Source: Escherichia coli
Lineage (GTDB): Bacteria > Pseudomonadota > Gammaproteobacteria > Enterobacterales > Enterobacteriaceae
Assembly: GCF_041886205.1 (NCBI RefSeq)
Contig: NZ_CP169029.1
DNA: 64,000 nucleotides
Strand: one strand, 5' to 3'
The translations under genes and the position numbers were made by a program. Positions 1,395 to 51,078 of this stretch are shown here, piece after piece. Each line of letters opens with the position of its first letter. The first letter of the stretch is position 1. Under the pieces are notes generated by a model, which did no database searches, was not told the origin of the DNA, and saw nothing but the letters and a program-made list of their open reading frames with translations.

Positions 1395-2711
1395 ATGGAG
1401 ACAACCATGCACGCGCGTTCAGCGAGAGAAATTAATCAATGCTACCGGACATTACGTCCGCGATTGCTGATGTGCATGATTATTGGCTACGCCGCATTTT
1501 ATCTGACGCGAAAAAGCGTGAATTACGTCCTTCCGGCGCTGCAAACCGACCTCGGACTGGATAAAGGCGACATTGGCCTGCTGGGTTCGCTGTTTTATCT
1601 CAGCTACGGATTGTCGAAATTTACCGCCGGACTGTGGCATGACAGCCACGGACAACGCGGTTTTATGGGCGTCGGCTTGTTCACCACCGGATTATTGAAC
1701 GTGGTGTTTGCCTTTGGCGAATCACTTACGCTTTTGCTTGTGGTCTGGACACTGAACGGATTTTTTCAGGGCTGGGGATGGCCACCGTGTGCTCGCTTGC
1801 TGACCCACTGGTACTCACGCAATGAGCGCGGTTTCTGGTGGGGCTGCTGGAATATGTCGATCAACATTGGCGGAGCGATTATTCCGCTAATTAGTGCCTT
1901 TGCCGCCCACTGGTGGGGCTGGCAGGCCGCGATGCTGACACCGGGGATAATCAGCATGGCATTAGGGATCTGGTTAACGCTACAACTCAAAGGCACGCCC
2001 CAGGAAGAGGGATTACCGACAGTTGGTCACTGGCGTCACGATCCGCTGGAGTTACGTCAGGAACAACAAAGTCCGCCGATGGGGCTGTGGCAAATGTTGC
2101 GCACCACCATGCTGCAAAATCCGCTGATCTGGCTACTGGGCGTCTCTTATGTACTGGTTTATGTGATCCGGATTGCGCTTAACGACTGGGGCAATATCTG
2201 GCTGACGGAAAGCCACGGCGTCAACCTGCTCAGCGCCAACGCCACGGTAATGCTGTTTGAAGTGGGCGGCTTACTCGGCGCGTTATTTGCCGGATGGGGA
2301 TCGGATTTGCTGTTTAGCGGGCAACGAGCGCCAATGATTTTGCTGTTCACGCTGGGGTTGATGGTGTCAGTCGCTGCACTGTGGCTGGCACCGGTTCATC
2401 ACTACGCTCTGCTGGCAGTGTGCTTTTTTACCGTAGGCTTTTTCGTCTTTGGTCCACAAATGCTGATTGGACTTGCGGCGGTGGAGTGTGGGCACAAAGC
2501 TGCGGCGGGTTCAATCACCGGATTTCTCGGCCTGTTCGCTTACCTTGGCGCGGCGCTGGCAGGCTGGCCACTGTCGCTGGTCATCGAACGCTACGGCTGG
2601 TCGGGAATGTTCAGTTTACTCTCGGTCGCCGCAGTACTTATGGGTTTACTGCTGATGCCGTTACTGATGGCGGGCATCACCACCACTCACGCTCGAAGGA
2701 TAAAACAATGA
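1395..2711 (+). CDS. UhpC-like MFS sugar-phosphate sensor/transporter (organophosphate:Pi antiporter family)
   Basis: 438 aa multi-helix membrane protein with UhpC/UhpT/GlpT-like N-terminus; 72 bp downstream of the kinase gene. Confidence 0.8.
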   Translation: METTMHARSAREINQCYRTLRPRLLMCMIIGYAAFYLTRKSVNYVLPALQTDLGLDKGDIGLLGSLFYLSYGLSKFTAGLWHDSHGQRGFMGVGLFTTGLLNVVFAFGESLTLLLVVWTLNGFFQGWGWPPCARLLTHWYSRNERGFWWGCWNMSINIGGAIIPLISAFAAHWWGWQAAMLTPGIISMALGIWLTLQLKGTPQEEGLPTVGHWRHDPLELRQEQQSPPMGLWQMLRTTMLQNPLIWLLGVSYVLVYVIRIALNDWGNIWLTESHGVNLLSANATVMLFEVGGLLGALFAGWGSDLLFSGQRAPMILLFTLGLMVSVAALWLAPVHHYALLAVCFFTVGFFVFGPQMLIGLAAVECGHKAAAGSITGFLGLFAYLGAALAGWPLSLVIERYGWSGMFSLLSVAAVLMGLLLMPLLMAGITTTHARRIKQ

Positions 2712-3739
2712 AAATGACCTTTACCTCTACTCTGATTGCTTCTGCCGTTGCGCTGGCGACTTTAACGGGTGCCGCGCAGGCGAAAGGCCGGCTGGTGGTC
2801 TATTGCAGCGCCACCAATGAAATGTGTGAAGCTGAAACCAAAGCGTTTGGCGAGAAATATGATGTGAAAACTTCATTTATCCGCAACGGTTCCGGAAGCA
2901 CCCTGGCAAAAGTCGATGCTGAAAAGAAAAACCCCCAGGCTGACGTCTGGTATGGCGGCACTTTAGACCCGCAATCGCAGGCCGGCGAGATGGGCCTGCT
3001 ACAGGCGTATAAATCCCCTAACCTTGAGCAGATCATGGAGAAATTCCGCGATCCGGCAAAAGTGAAAGGGAATCTGTCCTCTGCCGTATATGTGGGGATC
3101 CTCGGTTTTGGCGTAAACACCGATCGTCTGAAAGAGAAAGACCTGCCGGTGCCGAAGTGCTGGAAAGATCTCACCAAACCGGAATATAAAGGCGAAATTC
3201 AAATTGCCGATCCGCAAAGTTCCGGTACTGCCTACACCGCGCTGGCTACTTTTGCGCAGCTGTGGGGGGAAGATCAGGCCTTTGATTATCTAAAACAACT
3301 GAACGCCAACGTCTCCCAGTATACCAAATCAGGCATAGCCCCGGCACGTAACGCCGCTCGCGGCGAAACGGCGATTGGTATTGGCTTCCTGCATGACTAC
3401 TCGCTGGAAAAAGAACAGGGTGCGCCGCTGGAGTTGATTTCCCCTTGTGAAGGTACGGGCTATGAAATTGGCGGCGTCAGCATTCTGAAAGGCGCGCGCA
3501 ACCTCGACAATGCCAAACTGTTTGTGGACTGGGTATTATCAAAAGAAGCTCAGGAACTGGCGTGGAAGAAAGGGAAGTCTTATCAGATCCTGACCAATAC
3601 CACCGCCGAAACGTCGCCAAATTCGCTGAAGCTCGACGACCTGAAATTAATCAACTACGACATGGATAAATACGGTTCCACGGATGTTCGTAAGGCATTG
3701 ATTAATAAATGGGTTAGCGAAGTGAAGATGGGTAAGTAA
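2708..3739 (+). CDS. afuA: AfuA/FbpA-family periplasmic substrate-binding protein (sugar-phosphate or ferric type)
   Basis: Start MKMTFTSTLIASAVALATLTGAAQA is a signal peptide; ATG overlaps the uhpC-like stop (ATGA). The long ORF 2381-3739 is an upstream extension in the same frame. Confidence 0.8.
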   Translation: MKMTFTSTLIASAVALATLTGAAQAKGRLVVYCSATNEMCEAETKAFGEKYDVKTSFIRNGSGSTLAKVDAEKKNPQADVWYGGTLDPQSQAGEMGLLQAYKSPNLEQIMEKFRDPAKVKGNLSSAVYVGILGFGVNTDRLKEKDLPVPKCWKDLTKPEYKGEIQIADPQSSGTAYTALATFAQLWGEDQAFDYLKQLNANVSQYTKSGIAPARNAARGETAIGIGFLHDYSLEKEQGAPLELISPCEGTGYEIGGVSILKGARNLDNAKLFVDWVLSKEAQELAWKKGKSYQILTNTTAETSPNSLKLDDLKLINYDMDKYGSTDVRKALINKWVSEVKMGK

Positions 3740-3807
3740 ACCCGCATTAGGCGCATTTGCCGGGTGCAGCACAAATGCCTGCCCCGGCCAACCATACCGG
3801 AACTGCT

Positions 3808-5886
3808 ATGTCACAGACACTTGCACTCCATCCCGTGAAAAAGCGGGATGCGATTTTCCTTTGGGTTTTGCTGGGCTGGCTGGCATTTATCCTGTTGCCG
3901 AGCTGGAGTCTCGATTATGGCCTGCTGGAATCCACGAGTGATGAGATCCTCGAGGCTTATGGCTGGTCGCATTTTAATATCAGCTGGCTGTGGTATTTGT
4001 TACCGAGTCTGTTGCTGGTTCGCCCGTTTCGTGAGGCCACACGTGAACAGCGTAGTCGTCATTATTTTGATGCCGGCTGGGCATTGCTCTGTATGGCGTT
4101 TATCGTCATCAGCGCCACCGTGGCTGGACGCGGTTTAGGCTACGCCGCCATCGTGCTGTTTGTTGAATTAGGCGCGATTATGACGCTGGCCTTAACCCGC
4201 CTCGAATGGCTGGGCGGCGACCGCTTCGTGATCGGCTCGCTGATTGCGATTGTGGCGCTGATTGGCATTTTTATCGTCTGGCCGAGCATCGCCATTTTTA
4301 TCCCGATGTTCACCAACGACGCGGGAGAGTTCGCCCCGCTGGCGTTTATGAACGTGCTCTCGCAGGCACATATTGTGCAGGTGATCGTCAACTCTATCGT
4401 CTTGTCGATAGCGGTGGGTATTGGCTGTACCTTCTTCGGTCTGGTACTGGCGATTTATACCACGCGCATCGCCAAACGCAGCGCCATTATTGGCCGCATC
4501 TTTTCCATTCTGCCCATCGTTACACCACCGTTTGTGGTCGGCTTAGGCGTGACACTCATGATGGGGCGCTCCGGCTATATCACGGAGTTTATGGTGGAGT
4601 GGTTTGGGCTGACCAACACCAACTGGCTGTATGGCTTTACCGGGATCTGGCTGGCGCAGGTTCTGGCATTCACGCCAATGGCTTTTATGATCCTCGACGG
4701 GGCCATTAAAACCATTCATCCCTCGCTGGAAGAGGCCTCCTACACCCTGCGCGCCAGCCGCTGGCAAACCTTTAACGGCGTGTTTGTGCCGTTGCTAAAG
4801 CCCGCGCTCGCCAATGCCTTTTTAATCGTCGTGGTACAGTCACTGGCTGATTTCAGTAACCCGCTGGTGCTTGGCGGCAACTTCGACGTACTGGCGACGC
4901 AAATTTACTTCTACATTACCGGCTCGCAGCTGGATTATCAGGCCGCCAGCACGCTTGGTGCTTTCCTGCTGCTGTTCTCGCTGCTGGTGTTCTGCGTCCA
5001 GTATATGTGGATTGGTAAACGCTCTTACGTCACGGTTTCCGGCAAATCCTACCGTGGCGACGTCCAGCCACTACCGGTCACCCTGGTGTGGAGCGTGGTC
5101 GCCATACTTGCGGTATGGATTGCCTTTAACGCCCTGCTCTACGGCAGCATTTTCTACGGCAGCTTCACGGTGAACTGGGGCGTTGACTACACCCTGACGC
5201 TGGATAACTTTATCAAGTTATTTGGTCAGGGGATGAGCGACGGCGCGTGGCCTTCACTGTTGGATACCCTGCTCTACGCCGGGATTGCAGCCCCCATTAC
5301 CGCTATCTTTGGCCTGCTCATCGCCTGGGTGGTGGTGCGTCAACAATTCAAAGGCAAAAAGACCATCGAGTTCACCACCATGCTGTGCTTTGCCGTACCG
5401 GGTACGGTGGCGGGCGTCTCGTATATTCTCGCCTTTAACAGCGCTCCGGTTTATCTCACCGGAACGGCGGCAATTGTGATTATCTCGATGGTGATGCGTA
5501 ACGTTCCGGTGGGCATTCGTGCCGGGATTGCAGGTCTGGGGCAGATCGACAAATCGCTGGATGAAGCCTCACTCAGCCTGCGTGCGGGTTCCCTGCGAAC
5601 CATAACCCACATTTTACTGCCGCTGCTGCGCCCGGCCATTCTCTCGGCCCTGATCTACAGCTTTGTGCGGGCCATCACGACGGTCAGCGCCATCGTCTTT
5701 CTCGTCACGCCGGACACCCGCGTGGCAACAGCCTACATTCTTAACCGCGTTGAAGACGGCGAATATGGCGTAGCTATCGCCTATGGTTCGATTCTGATCG
5801 TGGTGATGCTGGCGATTATTTTCCTCTTTGACTGGCTGATCGGAGAAGCACGTATCTCCCGTTCTAAAGCCAAAAACCAGGCGTAA
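3808..5886 (+). CDS. afuB: AfuB/FbpB-family ABC transporter permease (fused two-domain)
   Basis: About 690 aa polytopic membrane protein; start chosen at MSQTLAL with GGAA upstream; ORF also open from 3757. Confidence 0.75.
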
Positions 5887-8614: not shown

Positions 8615-9448
8615 ATGGAACTCATTGAAAAACATGCCAGCTTTGGCGGCAGGCAAAATGTGTATCGGCATTATTCCCAATCACTGAAATGTGAAATGAA
8701 TGTCGGCGTCTATCTCCCACCAAAAGCCGCGAATGAAAAATTGCCGGTGCTGTACTGGCTTTCAGGCCTGACCTGCAACGAGCAGAATTTCATTACTAAA
8801 TCGGGGATGCAGCGTTACGCGGCTGAGCACAACATTATTGTTGTTGCGCCGGACACCAGTCCGCGAGGCAGTCATGTCGCAGATGCCGACCGTTACGATC
8901 TCGGGCAAGGTGCCGGGTTTTACCTGAACGCGACGCAAGCGCCGTGGAATGAACATTACAAAATGTATGACTATATCCGCAACGAGCTGCCGGATTTAGT
9001 GATGCAACATTTTCCGGCAACGGCCAGAAAGTCTATCTCAGGTCATTCTATGGGCGGGCTGGGCGCGCTAGTGCTGGCGTTACGTAATCCAGATGAATAT
9101 GTCAGCGTCTCGGCGTTTTCGCCCATTGTTTCCCCATCGCAAGTACCGTGGGGACAACAAGCCTTTGCCGCATATCTTGGTGAAAATAAAGAGGCGTGGT
9201 TGGATTACGATCCGGTGAGCCTTATTTCACAAGGTCAACGCGTTGCGGAAATCATGGTTGATCAGGGGTTGAGTGATGATTTTTACGCGGAACAGCTGCG
9301 GACTCCAAATCTTGAAAAGATCTGCCAGGCGATGAATATCAAGACGTTAATCCGTTATCACGAGGGTTATGATCACAGCTATTATTTTGTCTCCAGTTTT
9401 ATTGGCGAGCATATTGCCTACCACGCCAATAAACTGAATATGCGTTGA
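8615..9448 (+). CDS. frmB: S-formylglutathione hydrolase (esterase D family)
   Basis: 277 aa with GHSMGG serine-hydrolase motif; third gene of frmRAB. Confidence 0.95.
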   Translation: MELIEKHASFGGRQNVYRHYSQSLKCEMNVGVYLPPKAANEKLPVLYWLSGLTCNEQNFITKSGMQRYAAEHNIIVVAPDTSPRGSHVADADRYDLGQGAGFYLNATQAPWNEHYKMYDYIRNELPDLVMQHFPATARKSISGHSMGGLGALVLALRNPDEYVSVSAFSPIVSPSQVPWGQQAFAAYLGENKEAWLDYDPVSLISQGQRVAEIMVDQGLSDDFYAEQLRTPNLEKICQAMNIKTLIRYHEGYDHSYYFVSSFIGEHIAYHANKLNMR

Positions 9449-9473
9449 TAATAGTGCACGACTGCCGGATGCG

Positions 9474-9660
9474 GCGTGAACGCCTTATCCGGCCTACACT
9501 TCGCCCATAAACCGTAGGCCTGATAAGACGCGAAAAGCGTCGCATCAGGCATTTGCGCACGGCTGCCGGATGCGGCGTGGACGCCTTATCCGGCCTACAT
9601 TTTACCCATAAACCGTAGGCATGATAAGACGCGCATAGCGTCGCATCAGGCATCTGTGCA
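9474..9660. repeat. REP cluster: two tandem copies of a roughly 91 bp REP-containing unit
   Basis: GCCGGATGCGGCGTGAACGCCTTATCCGGCCTACA... recurs at 9474 and 9565 with few mismatches. Confidence 0.85.
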
Positions 9661-9674
9661 CGACTTATCTATGT

Positions 9675-10214
9675 TTACCACATCAAATCATCAGGCACTT
9701 TGAAGTCGGCATACGGGTCGTCTTCATCCTGCTCTTCGGCGCTGAGCGCGCTGTGCAACACTATACTGCTGGCATCACGCTGAGCAATTTTATCGGCAAC
9801 GCTGGCGGGAATAATTGCGTATTCACCTTCGCTATTGTTATCGAGCAACAAGCGGGCAATCGCCAGACGACCATTAATCAACTGCGCCTGTGTGAGCTTA
9901 TCGACAAAAATCTTCTTAATCAGATTGCCGTCAGTGAAGTTAAAACCAATATCACCATTGGCAATGGTGATTCGGTTCATTTCAATGAGCTGCTTCACCT
10001 GGGCTTTATATTCTTTCGCCAACGCCGCTTGTTTTTGTTGCTCGCTAAGCTGTTTATCACGCTCAAGCTGTGCCTTTTTATTTTCTTCTACCGCTGCCCG
10101 AGCTTCACGCGCCTGAACACGCGATTTTTTCGCCGTTCTCTCCACCTTCGCTGCTTTTTTGCTGGTGACTAATCCTGCTTTGAGCAACTGCTCTTGTAAG
10201 GTAAGTTTTGCCAT
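9675..10214 (-). CDS. yaiL: YaiL (DUF2058) protein
   Basis: 179 aa from MAKLTLQEQLLKAG; listed ORF extends upstream to 10331. Confidence 0.85.
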   Translation of the reverse strand: MAKLTLQEQLLKAGLVTSKKAAKVERTAKKSRVQAREARAAVEENKKAQLERDKQLSEQQKQAALAKEYKAQVKQLIEMNRITIANGDIGFNFTDGNLIKKIFVDKLTQAQLINGRLAIARLLLDNNSEGEYAIIPASVADKIAQRDASSIVLHSALSAEEQDEDDPYADFKVPDDLMW

Positions 10215-10315
10215 CTTTGTTTCCAAACCCGCTGAATAATTTTTAGCGAGTATACCTGTAAACGCCGTAGGTGTATTGGGGTGAAGTCCCTTTCGCCCCT
10301 GCCTAATAAAGCGCG

Positions 10316-11527
10316 TCAGGCATCGGCGCACGGCTGTATTCTTGATCTCCGGCTCATCAAAATAAACACCGCCAACCCAGCAACAATAATACCCGGTGCA
10401 GAAGCGGCCATTACGCCGACCGTGCCAGTGCCTAATGCCAGCATTTTCCCGGCCAGTAACGGACCGCTCATAGCCCCCAGACGCCCTACCGCCACGGCTG
10501 TTCCCACACCTGTTGCGCGGATCTGCGAGCTGTAAAACAACGGTGCCAATGCATATAAAACGCTTTGCCCACCTGTCGCAAACAACCCCGCGACAAATCC
10601 CGCCAGCAACATACCGTTAAATGACGACACCGTTCCCAGCGCCAGCAGCGAAGCTAACATGCCGCTATAAATCAGTAGCGACATGGTTACTGGACGCAGC
10701 TTATCCATCAATGCGCCCAACATTAACGTCCCGCTTGCCGCACCCATTTGCAGTGCAAACATCACCCCTGCCGCCTGCGATGGCTGGAATCCTTGCTCCA
10801 CCAAAAGTAGCGGTAGCCAGTTGATCAACATATAAACCACCAGCAGAGTGAAGAAATAACACAACCACAGCAGCAGCGTCGCGGTTGCCGTTTCTGGCGC
10901 AAATAAGGCTCGCAGTGGTGGCGCAGCCTGTTTTTCGCCAGCGAAAACCGCCGACTCCGGCAGCCAGCGCATTAATAGCGGCACCAGAATCAACGGCACC
11001 ACACCACCGACCCAAAACACCGTTTGCCATGCTAAGTTTGCCCCCGCGAAACCCAGCGTCGCCGCCAGCGCCGCGCCAATGGGAACACCGCAATACATCA
11101 GGCTCACTGCCGTCCCACGAAAACGTGGACCCGCGGCTTCAGACGTCAGGGCGATAAGATTCGGCAACGCCGCCCCCAGCCCGACACCGGTCATCAGCCG
11201 CGCAAAGACCAGTGAGGGGAAATCCCAGGCAATCGCCGTTGCCAGTGAGAACAAACCAAACAGCGCAACTGAGCCAATCAAAATGCGCTTGCGACCATAA
11301 CGGTCCGCCAGCATTCCACCAACCAACGCGCCGGGTAGCAAACCGAGTATTCCGGCGCTGAATATCCAACCCATTTGCATTTTATCGAGTGCGAAAGCCT
11401 GGGCGATGCCACCCGCCGCAATGCCAGCCGCCTGAAGATCCAGTCCTTCCATCAGAGCGACCAAAAAACAAAGCCCGATGGTCAGCATCAGGCGGGTTGA
11501 AGATGATGAAGGGGTACGAGTCGACAT
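10316..11527 (-). CDS. mhpT: 3-(3-hydroxyphenyl)propionate MFS transporter
   Basis: 403 aa from MSTRTPSSSSTRLMLTIG; 12-TM MFS protein beside the mhp operon. Confidence 0.9.
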   Translation of the reverse strand: MSTRTPSSSSTRLMLTIGLCFLVALMEGLDLQAAGIAAGGIAQAFALDKMQMGWIFSAGILGLLPGALVGGMLADRYGRKRILIGSVALFGLFSLATAIAWDFPSLVFARLMTGVGLGAALPNLIALTSEAAGPRFRGTAVSLMYCGVPIGAALAATLGFAGANLAWQTVFWVGGVVPLILVPLLMRWLPESAVFAGEKQAAPPLRALFAPETATATLLLWLCYFFTLLVVYMLINWLPLLLVEQGFQPSQAAGVMFALQMGAASGTLMLGALMDKLRPVTMSLLIYSGMLASLLALGTVSSFNGMLLAGFVAGLFATGGQSVLYALAPLFYSSQIRATGVGTAVAVGRLGAMSGPLLAGKMLALGTGTVGVMAASAPGIIVAGLAVFILMSRRSRIQPCADA

Positions 11528-11604
11528 AAGATGAACCTCGTTGCGAGTACAGGTGAATCGCGGCTGATACATTGTCAGCCGCGTAATCAGAACTATGTAA
11601 TGAC

Positions 11605-11662
<58 letters not shown>

Positions 11663-11702
11663 TGGGATGGGCATACAAAATGCACGTTCTCGGCAGTCAT
11701 CA

Positions 11703-25345: not shown

Positions 25346-25437
25346 TTGCCTGATGCGCTTCGCTTATCAGGCCTACAAATTCAGTGATCTACGTAGGCCG
25401 CATCCGGCATGAACAAAGCGCAGGAACAAGCGTCGCA
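25346..25437. repeat. REP cluster between the convergent lacA and cynX
   Basis: TTGCCTGATGCGCTTCGCTTATCAGGCCTACA ... TACGTAGGCCGCATCCGGCA. Confidence 0.8.
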
Positions 25438-28806: not shown

Positions 28807-28888
28807 TTGCCTGATGCGCTACGCTTATCAGGCCTACGAGTTCAGTGCTCTACGTAGGCCGGATAAGGCGTTCACGCCGCATCCGGCA
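28807..28888. repeat. REP cluster
   Basis: TGCCTGATGCGCTACGCTTATCAGGCCTACGAG ... TACGTAGGCCGGATAAGGCGTTCACGCCGCATCCGGCA. Confidence 0.85.
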
Positions 28889-31541: not shown

Positions 31542-31612
31542 GGGGAAATATATTTTTTATATGAATGAGTGCAAAAAGGTGGGGGAAAAATTATCGGTGT
31601 AAAAACAGTGGG

Positions 31613-31692
31613 TAGGCATAATAAGACGCGGTAAGCGTCGCATCAGGCATCGGCGCATGGTGTCGGATGCGCCAGGCGACGCATCCGACAAC
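31613..31692. repeat. REP cluster
   Basis: GGCATAATAAGACGCGGTAAGCGTCGCATCAGGCAT ... GTCGGATGCGCCAGGCGACGCATCCGACA. Confidence 0.8.
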
Positions 31693-36318: not shown

Positions 36319-36412
36319 GTCGGATGCGACGCTATGCGTCTTATCCGACAGTTCAGTGCATCCCGTAGGCCTGATAAGTCGCGTCAGCGGCGCATCAGGC
36401 ATCGGTTGTCAA
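36319..36412. repeat. REP cluster between prpC and prpB
   Basis: GTCGGATGCGACGCTATGCGTCTTATCCGACA ... GTAGGCCTGATAAGTCGCGTCAGCGGCGCATCAGGCAT. Confidence 0.8.
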
Positions 36413-50994: not shown

Positions 50995-51078
50995 CTGCCT
51001 GATGCGCTACGCTTATCAGGCCTACAATTCTCGGGCCATTCGTAGGCCGGATAAGGCGTTCACGCCGCATCCGGCATA
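50995..51078. repeat. REP cluster between yahI and yahG
   Basis: TGCCTGATGCGCTACGCTTATCAGGCCTACA ... GTAGGCCGGATAAGGCGTTCACGCCGCATCCGGCA. Confidence 0.85.

Follow-up and report, generated by a model that had tools for sequence, protein, structure and literature searches.

A two-unit BIME-2 array with a polymorphic second unit between frmB and yaiL in Escherichia coli

The 3' ends of the convergent genes frmB and yaiL of Escherichia coli are separated, in the 64-kb stretch of DNA analysed here (hereafter the window), by a spacer that consists almost entirely of a direct repeat carrying REP palindromes. This raises the question of what kind of element the repeat is, how it varies between strains and whether its second copy is of any consequence. 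There is very little doubt that the element is a BIME-2 made of two tandem 101-bp Y-S-Z2 units in the 226-bp convergent spacer between frmRAB and yaiL, that it belongs to a genome-wide family and that its second unit is subject to polymorphic gain or loss; what can be said of its function is carried over from the family. Elements of this kind are already known. The one described here is a textbook BIME-2, and the comparative data provide a tidy illustration of the family with nothing surprising in them.

Genomic context of the array

The array is flanked by two genes whose stop codons face each other:

8615-9448, + strand: frmB (fghA), coding sequence of the S-formylglutathione hydrolase, identified from the list of open reading frames, a 100%-identical match annotated fghA and the K-12 annotation
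9675-10331, − strand: yaiL, maximal open reading frame of a DUF2058 protein with a TAA stop at 9675-9677, identified from the list of open reading frames and annotations

The gene frmB is the last of frmRAB and ends with a TGA codon at 9446-9448. The true start of yaiL probably lies near 10214, since the coding sequence annotated in K-12 is 540 nt long. The convergent spacer measures 226 bp (9449-9674). The array occupies nearly all of it and is wholly extragenic, being contained between the two stop codons. The equivalent spacer of K-12 is 223 bp long (NC_000913.3 377,312-377,534), and the K-12 annotation gives the gene order yaiO-frmR-frmA-frmB followed by the convergent yaiL-mhpT. The NC_000913.3 record carries no repeat_region feature at this spacer. 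Neither frmB nor yaiL is mentioned in the text supplements of the gyrase Topo-seq paper (PMC6379681) and of the RepRanger paper. The locus is nearly universal in the species: an 801-bp query over the region matched 5,425 of the 5,426 complete E. coli genomes, with flanks annotated fghA and yaiL, and the match was 100% identical in the pig isolate LHM10-1. An intrinsic terminator in the spacer was considered and rejected, as no terminator-like site was predicted on either strand between 9300 and 9800.

Period and bounds of the tandem repeat

Tandem Repeats Finder reported a repeat at 9456-9665 with a period of 101, 2.1 copies, 89% matches, no indels and a score of 350. A gap-free repeat finder returned the same period, with two copies of 101 nt each (9456-9556 and 9557-9657) at 90% identity, and a position-by-position comparison found 91 of the 101 positions identical. 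The tandem direct repeat is real and far beyond chance. It is composed as follows:

9456-9556, unstranded: BIME-2 unit 1 (101 bp), with an 8-nt lead, a Y REP, a 16-nt linker, an inverted Z2 REP and the start of the head-to-head linker
9557-9657, unstranded: BIME-2 unit 2 (101 bp), identical to unit 1 at 91/101 positions
9658-9665, unstranded: partial third copy of 8 nt, GCACGACT, the same as the first 8 nt of unit 1

An earlier reading of the sequence alone had rightly placed the repeat between the convergent frmB and yaiL and had seen multiple REP palindromes in each unit, which turn out to be exactly two, one Y and one inverted Z2. The period of 91 bp that it proposed is wrong, 91 being the count of identical positions and 101 bp the period. 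The coordinates that it gave, 9474-9660, miss the first 18 nt and the last 5 nt of the repeat, the corrected bounds being 9456-9665.

Short tandem repeats can be mis-assembled, and the exact allele of the window is rare, with 15 records at 99% identity or more. There is nevertheless next to no probability that chance similarity or faulty assembly (a collapsed or expanded repeat) explains what is seen, given the Tandem Repeats Finder score of 350 over two copies matching at 91/101 positions. The units differ at 10 positions and therefore are no copy-paste artefact. Two-unit alleles were present in about 45% of the sampled complete genomes, including those of K-12 MG1655, BW25113, DH5alpha, NC101 and Nissle, and a 100%-identical 801-bp match was found in an independent genome (H1). 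The comparative data have already refuted an artefact.

REP anatomy and predicted hairpins

The spacer holds four REPs, joined by linkers of 14 to 16 nt:

9464-9497, + strand: Y REP no. 1, GCCGGATGCGGCGTGAACGCCTTATCCGGCCTAC, 0 mismatches to the consensus, predicted hairpin of −21.3 (+) / −20.9 (−) kcal/mol
9498-9513, unstranded: tail-to-tail linker of unit 1, 16 nt, ACTTCGCCCATAAACC, placed where BIME-2 have their short S linker (layout in PMC3333891)
9514-9550, − strand: Z2 REP no. 1, 0 mismatches, predicted hairpin of about −21.5 kcal/mol (+ strand −21.8)
9551-9564, unstranded: head-to-head linker, 14 nt, ATTTGCGCACGGCT, aligned to the 'l' linker of the naRNA4 model in the Rfam alignment
9565-9598, + strand: Y REP no. 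2, 0 mismatches, with the loop GTGGAC instead of GTGAAC, predicted hairpin of −21.3 / −20.9 kcal/mol
9599-9614, unstranded: tail-to-tail linker of unit 2, 16 nt, ATTTTACCCATAAACC, read from the sequence
9615-9651, − strand: Z2 REP no. 2, one mismatch, GGCATGAT, predicted hairpin of −15.2 / −14.7 kcal/mol

The REPs alternate in orientation, tail-to-tail and head-to-head, with both Y REPs on the + strand (9464 and 9565) and both Z2 REPs on the − strand (9514 and 9615). The Y and Z2 consensus patterns gave 0 matches in shuffled sequence. No inverted-repeat pair was reported in the array by the repeat finder at its default seed length, because the REP stems are short and imperfect; the REPs were located by consensus search and folding instead.

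Each single REP is predicted to fold as an RNA hairpin of −15 to −22 kcal/mol on both strands. The weaker hairpin of Z2 no. 2 is due to its one stem mismatch (GGCATGAT). The fold of the whole array is also far more stable than that of shuffled sequences (z = −7.6 for the + strand, −5.6 for the − strand), and its global minimum pairs distant REPs together. The local REP hairpins are more likely to be the structures that would form co-transcriptionally than these modelled minimum-free-energy folds of the whole array.

A minus-strand open reading frame of 84 aa (9399-9653) crosses the entire REP array into the 3' end of frmB and is composed of REP sequence. Gene callers sometimes annotate such reading frames; this one was rejected as spurious and is almost certainly not a gene.

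Assignment to the BIME-2 family

In the nomenclature of Gilson, Bachellier and Hofnung, BIME-2 are the elements that combine z2 with y REPs; the tandem copies within a locus show good conservation, and E. coli strains differ in how many of them a given locus carries (Ton-Hoang et al. 2012, PMC3333891). The frmB-yaiL array shows the same alternation of Y and Z2, the same tandem units and extragenic location, as well as the strain-variable copy number and the mutual resemblance of its tandem copies. Its linkers (16 nt tail-to-tail and 14 nt head-to-head) are short and, by length and position, may correspond to linkers of the S/s/l/r type. Nothing of substance differs from the family description: there are two units here and up to six or more at other loci, and the distal Z2 of the window carries one stem mismatch.

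Related classes were considered and rejected. BIME-1 elements, which are single-copy and combine a Y and a Z1 REP with a long L linker bearing an IHF site, resemble the array in being an inverted REP pair in an intergenic spacer. In contrast with BIME-1, the partner REP is here Z2, the linkers are only 14-16 nt long and the element is tandem; no match to Z1 was found in 9449-9674, the Z1 matches of the window lying only at 25348, 28809 and 50997. A REPtron, in which REPs or a BIME directly flank a tnpA-REP (RAYT) gene for a Y1 transposase, is not what was found either, the neighbours being frmB/fghA and yaiL (DUF2058) with no transposase adjoining the array. The 222-bp RRS elements were considered for their similar size. 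They lie near dusC and lysO, about 650 kb on either side of dif, and form a class distinct from BIME-2 (PMC10592627), so that both location and class set them apart.

Copy-number polymorphism and allele history

The number of units was determined in two samples drawn from the 5,426 complete E. coli genomes. The first was a systematic spread sample of the 801-bp search, in which a span of 798-802 bp corresponds to two units and one of 698-700 bp to one unit; it comprised 24 two-unit and 33 one-unit loci. For the second, the query was made of the last 200 bp of frmB and the last 200 bp of yaiL and matched each genome once, with spans of 623-626 bp (two units) or 524-526 bp (one unit); it comprised 28 two-unit and 30 one-unit loci. 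When both samples are pooled, 52 of the 115 loci have two units and 63 have one, which bears out the expectation of the sequence-only reading that copy number at the frmB-yaiL junction differs between strains. Zero-unit and three-unit alleles were absent from the 115 sampled loci. Strains with two units include K-12 derivatives, O104:H4, NC101 and Nissle; those with one unit include O157:H7, O55:H7 and O145. This near-even split suggests that copy number is close to neutral and argues against a strongly selected role for the second unit.

Ten complete alleles were read. They are mosaic and differ in their linkers, in their REP loops and by small indels. For instance, the left part of the two-unit allele of 2020N21-246 is the same as the left part of the one-unit allele of 09A19CPO009, and the distal Z2 of the window (GGCATGAT...GCGCATAGCG) is identical to the single Z2 of one-unit alleles. 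Over the spacer, two-unit alleles have a mean pairwise identity of 93.5% and one-unit alleles one of 91.5%, against 97.8% and 97.1%, respectively, for the adjoining 300-bp coding ends. The divergence of the array (6.5-8.5%) is thus about three times that of its flanks (2.2-2.9%).

Gain and loss of the second unit would likely proceed by replication slippage, by unequal recombination or gene conversion between units, or through the REP-associated tyrosine transposase. RecA-dependent recombination has requirements on homology length. The longest perfect block common to both units is 19 bp in the allele of the window versus 37 bp in K-12, and RecA-dependent collapse of the array should therefore be less likely in the strain of the window. 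As to the transposase, TnpA-REP cleaves and recombines BIMEs in vitro (PMC3333891).

The age of the array was approached through other Escherichia, with one genome per species and a degenerate pattern for the C-terminus of FrmB; the sampling was thin and three loci were found. E. albertii carries a single REP pair at the site, of other types (a Y/Z-like hybrid and a Z1-like REP). In the divergent 'E. coli' lineage SCPM-O-B-8794, a linker of 7 nt joins the REPs of a single Y+Z2 pair, and Escherichia sp. E1V33 has two units similar to those of the window, with 10 extra nt (GTAGCAGGCC) in the second linker. The presence of a REP pair at the site in these loci indicates that the pair is old in the genus. 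From the same thinly sampled sequences, the second unit looks derived.

In E1V33, the extra GTAGCAGGCC (L015, about 9940-9950) connects the 'ATAAACC' linker end of two-unit alleles to the 'CAGGCC' end of one-unit alleles. It may be a scar left by the gain of the second unit, at a GTAG/CTAC site such as TnpA-REP cleaves.

Insertion of IS621 and IS1397 into the array

In 133 records, the two flanks of the array were not joined within 700 bp. Four such loci were examined and all four contain a REP-specific insertion sequence inside the array. Three of them carry IS621, a bridge-RNA recombinase element of the IS110 family (1,279 bp), at sites equivalent to 9514-9524 of the window: L003 (4270-5548), L004 (about 2670-3950) and L016 (about 2224-3502). 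The natural target of IS621 is the 11-nt sequence ATCAGGCCTAC with a CT core (Durrant et al.; PMC11208160). A perfect copy of this target, ATCAGGCCTAC, lies in Z2 no. 1 of the window (− strand, 9514-9524).

The junctions read ...CCGTAG / ATACTGTT...IS621...ATACAAG / GCCTGATAAG..., with GCATGATAA... in L004. In all three, IS621 interrupts the tail of a minus-strand Z2 REP, the cut being ATCAGGC^CTAC. Both L003 and L016 have two units, with IS621 in Z2 no. 1. L004 is a one-unit allele in which IS621 lies at the variant target ATCATGCCTAC; a mismatched site is thus usable. Since IS621 is found in both one-unit and two-unit alleles, at least two independent insertions must have occurred. A query spanning the frmB-BIME-IS621 junction was covered over at least 80% of its length in 98 of the 5,426 genomes.

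The fourth locus, from strain 16843 (L017), carries IS1397, an IS3-family element of 1,431 bp (about 2068-3498), in the loop of the Y REP at a site equivalent to about 9477-9481 of the window. The 4 bp GTGA are present on both sides of the element. IS1397 is known to insert into palindromic units of BIMEs, according to work cited in PMC1525189.

The insertions in these strains fit the known behaviour of both elements at REP-targeted sites. On the evidence of the junction sequences, the array is a demonstrated landing site for the REP-specific IS621 and IS1397. Together with the mosaic alleles, these insertions inside the array of other strains agree with the role of recombination site that the sequence-only reading had envisaged. 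The window itself contains neither IS621 nor IS1397, its site being an empty target.

As a side observation, the mhp cluster, mhpT included, is absent from its usual position beside yaiL in L017, where lacI follows yaiL almost directly.

The naRNA4 match

The array contains the sole gathering-level Rfam match of the 64-kb window, to naRNA4 (RF02564). It runs from 9595 to 9517 on the − strand and covers the full-length model (1-77) with 80.9 bits, the gathering score being 59.5:

9517-9595, − strand: Y(2)-l-Z2(1) head-to-head module, RF02564 match, in the sense of yaiL, spanning the unit junction

The match was found at frmB-yaiL in six of six two-unit alleles and in none of the four one-unit alleles tested, because the module requires two adjacent units. 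RF02564 also matches at least four modules in the mhpT-mhpE BIME-2 of K-12 and six in L014. In practice, the model is therefore a detector of generic BIME-2 head-to-head modules, and Rfam naRNA4 matches mark such modules and not one specific gene.

The RNA naRNA4 is one of the six Y-l-Z2 units of REP325, located between yjdM and yjdN. It binds HU, and the two together condense DNA that contains cruciforms. Transcripts are made from many REPs, and naRNAs probably arise when read-through RNA from the upstream gene is processed (Qian et al. 2015, PMC4550694). The module at frmB-yaiL is of the same two-hairpin Y-l-Z2 type, 77-79 nt long, above the Rfam gathering threshold, and its orientation would allow transcription by yaiL read-through, as proposed for yjdM and REP325. 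It differs in lying at frmB-yaiL and not at yjdM-yjdN, in being one complete module instead of six and in several positions of the linker. Moreover, it is missing from about half of E. coli genomes. The locus was accordingly rejected as the naRNA4 gene itself and is a paralogous BIME-2 module that matches the model.

These similarities allow a reading in which the second unit matters because it creates a naRNA4-equivalent Y-l-Z2 module: a two-hairpin RNA of 77 nt, produced by yaiL read-through, would bind HU and help to bridge cruciform DNA, and two-unit strains would possess an extra nucleoid-associated RNA gene. The score of 80.9 bits, the yaiL-sense orientation and the presence in all six two-unit and no one-unit alleles tested agree with it, as do the REP transcription and the probable processing of upstream read-through reported in PMC4550694. 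It is nonetheless very unlikely: the Rfam model is generic for BIME-2 head-to-head modules, REP325 at yjdM-yjdN is the one array with a demonstrated function, and the module is absent from frmB-yaiL in about half of E. coli genomes. That the one-/two-unit polymorphism amounts to the presence or absence of a naRNA4-type HU-binding non-coding RNA module issued from the 3' UTR of yaiL is very unlikely indeed. If true, the frmB-yaiL spacer would provide an additional nucleoid-associated RNA or cruciform contact point in about half of E. coli strains, perhaps with altered gyrase loading between frmRAB and yaiL, and local topology or frm/yaiL expression would be measurably affected.

A weak sigma-70-like match (TTATCA, 17-nt spacer, TAAAAT; 9/12 positions) lies on the − strand at 9627-9599, inside unit 2 and in the sense of the naRNA4 module. 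It falls in REP and linker sequence and is probably a coincidence with the consensus. This would be the place to look if a naRNA4-type module were transcribed independently of yaiL.

Possible functions of the array

Several activities have been reported for REPs: stabilisation of the mRNA upstream, attenuation of transcription, binding of gyrase, Pol I and IHF, and insulation of the supercoils that transcription induces (PMC3333891). BIME-2, and chiefly their Y REPs, are enriched in sites of gyrase cleavage, which blocking transcription does not abolish (PMC6379681). BIME-2 are also topological barriers, and most of them lie on the boundaries of supercoiling regions (PMC10592627).

No structured element other than the frmB-yaiL array is present where its two convergent transcription units end, and these lack predicted intrinsic terminators. 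At the RNA level, its four stable hairpins at the 3' ends of both convergent transcripts would form a barrier to 3'-to-5' exonucleases and act as attenuators. The literature, the predicted stability of the hairpins and the absence of an intrinsic terminator together suggest that the array may stabilise transcripts, as the sequence-only reading had proposed. At the DNA level, by analogy with other BIME-2, the array would likely be a preferred gyrase site or a topological barrier where the positive supercoils of converging polymerases would meet. The most economical reading would combine 3'-end protection or attenuation on both strands with a gyrase site.

An alternative is that the main role is translational, the hairpin of Y no. 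1 near the frmB stop stalling terminating ribosomes and lowering FrmB output by the Liang-Rudd-Deutscher mechanism. According to a statement quoted in PMC12306157, REPs located less than 16 nt past a stop codon reportedly reduce translation of the gene that they follow. The stem of Y no. 1 begins at 9464, which places it exactly 15 nt past the TGA of frmB (9446-9448); the distance is the same in the other alleles read and is 13 nt in K-12. However, 15 nt is at the edge of the published limit. The mechanism also concerns the first REP only and leaves unexplained the tandem duplication and the yaiL side, where 23 nt separate the stop codon from Z2 no. 2. As the main role of the array, it is unlikely; by analogy, a REP-dependent translational effect would be a secondary possibility, for frmB only.

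Significance and other REPs of the window

Taken alone, the array is of little importance, as BIME-2 arrays, their copy-number variation and their targeting by IS621 and IS1397 are all established. The 226-bp spacer is rather a clean worked example, in which unit gain and loss, mosaic alleles, bridge-RNA-guided insertion of IS621 at its exact target and insertion of IS1397 into a REP loop can be followed from one public genome to another. It is also a possible natural test bed for relating BIME-2 copy number to 3'-end stability, gyrase loading and production of naRNA-like RNA.

The frmB-yaiL array is the sole tandem BIME-2 of the window. The nearby mhpT-mhpE spacer is 130 bp long in the window (11573-11702) and holds a single Y REP (11621-11654, − strand). 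In K-12, the same spacer measures 577 bp (L001, 5376-5952) and holds at least four naRNA4-scoring BIME-2 modules (L001, 5472-5850). Since the two spacers differ, the neighbouring BIME is also polymorphic.

Elsewhere in the window, two Z1+Y pairs with 16-nt spacers lie at 28809-28887 and 50997-51075, a lone Z1-like REP at 25348-25376 and a lone degenerate Z2 at 31612-31648. The window additionally contains four more perfect IS621 targets, at 25366, 28827, 36365 (− strand; 36365-36375) and 51015.
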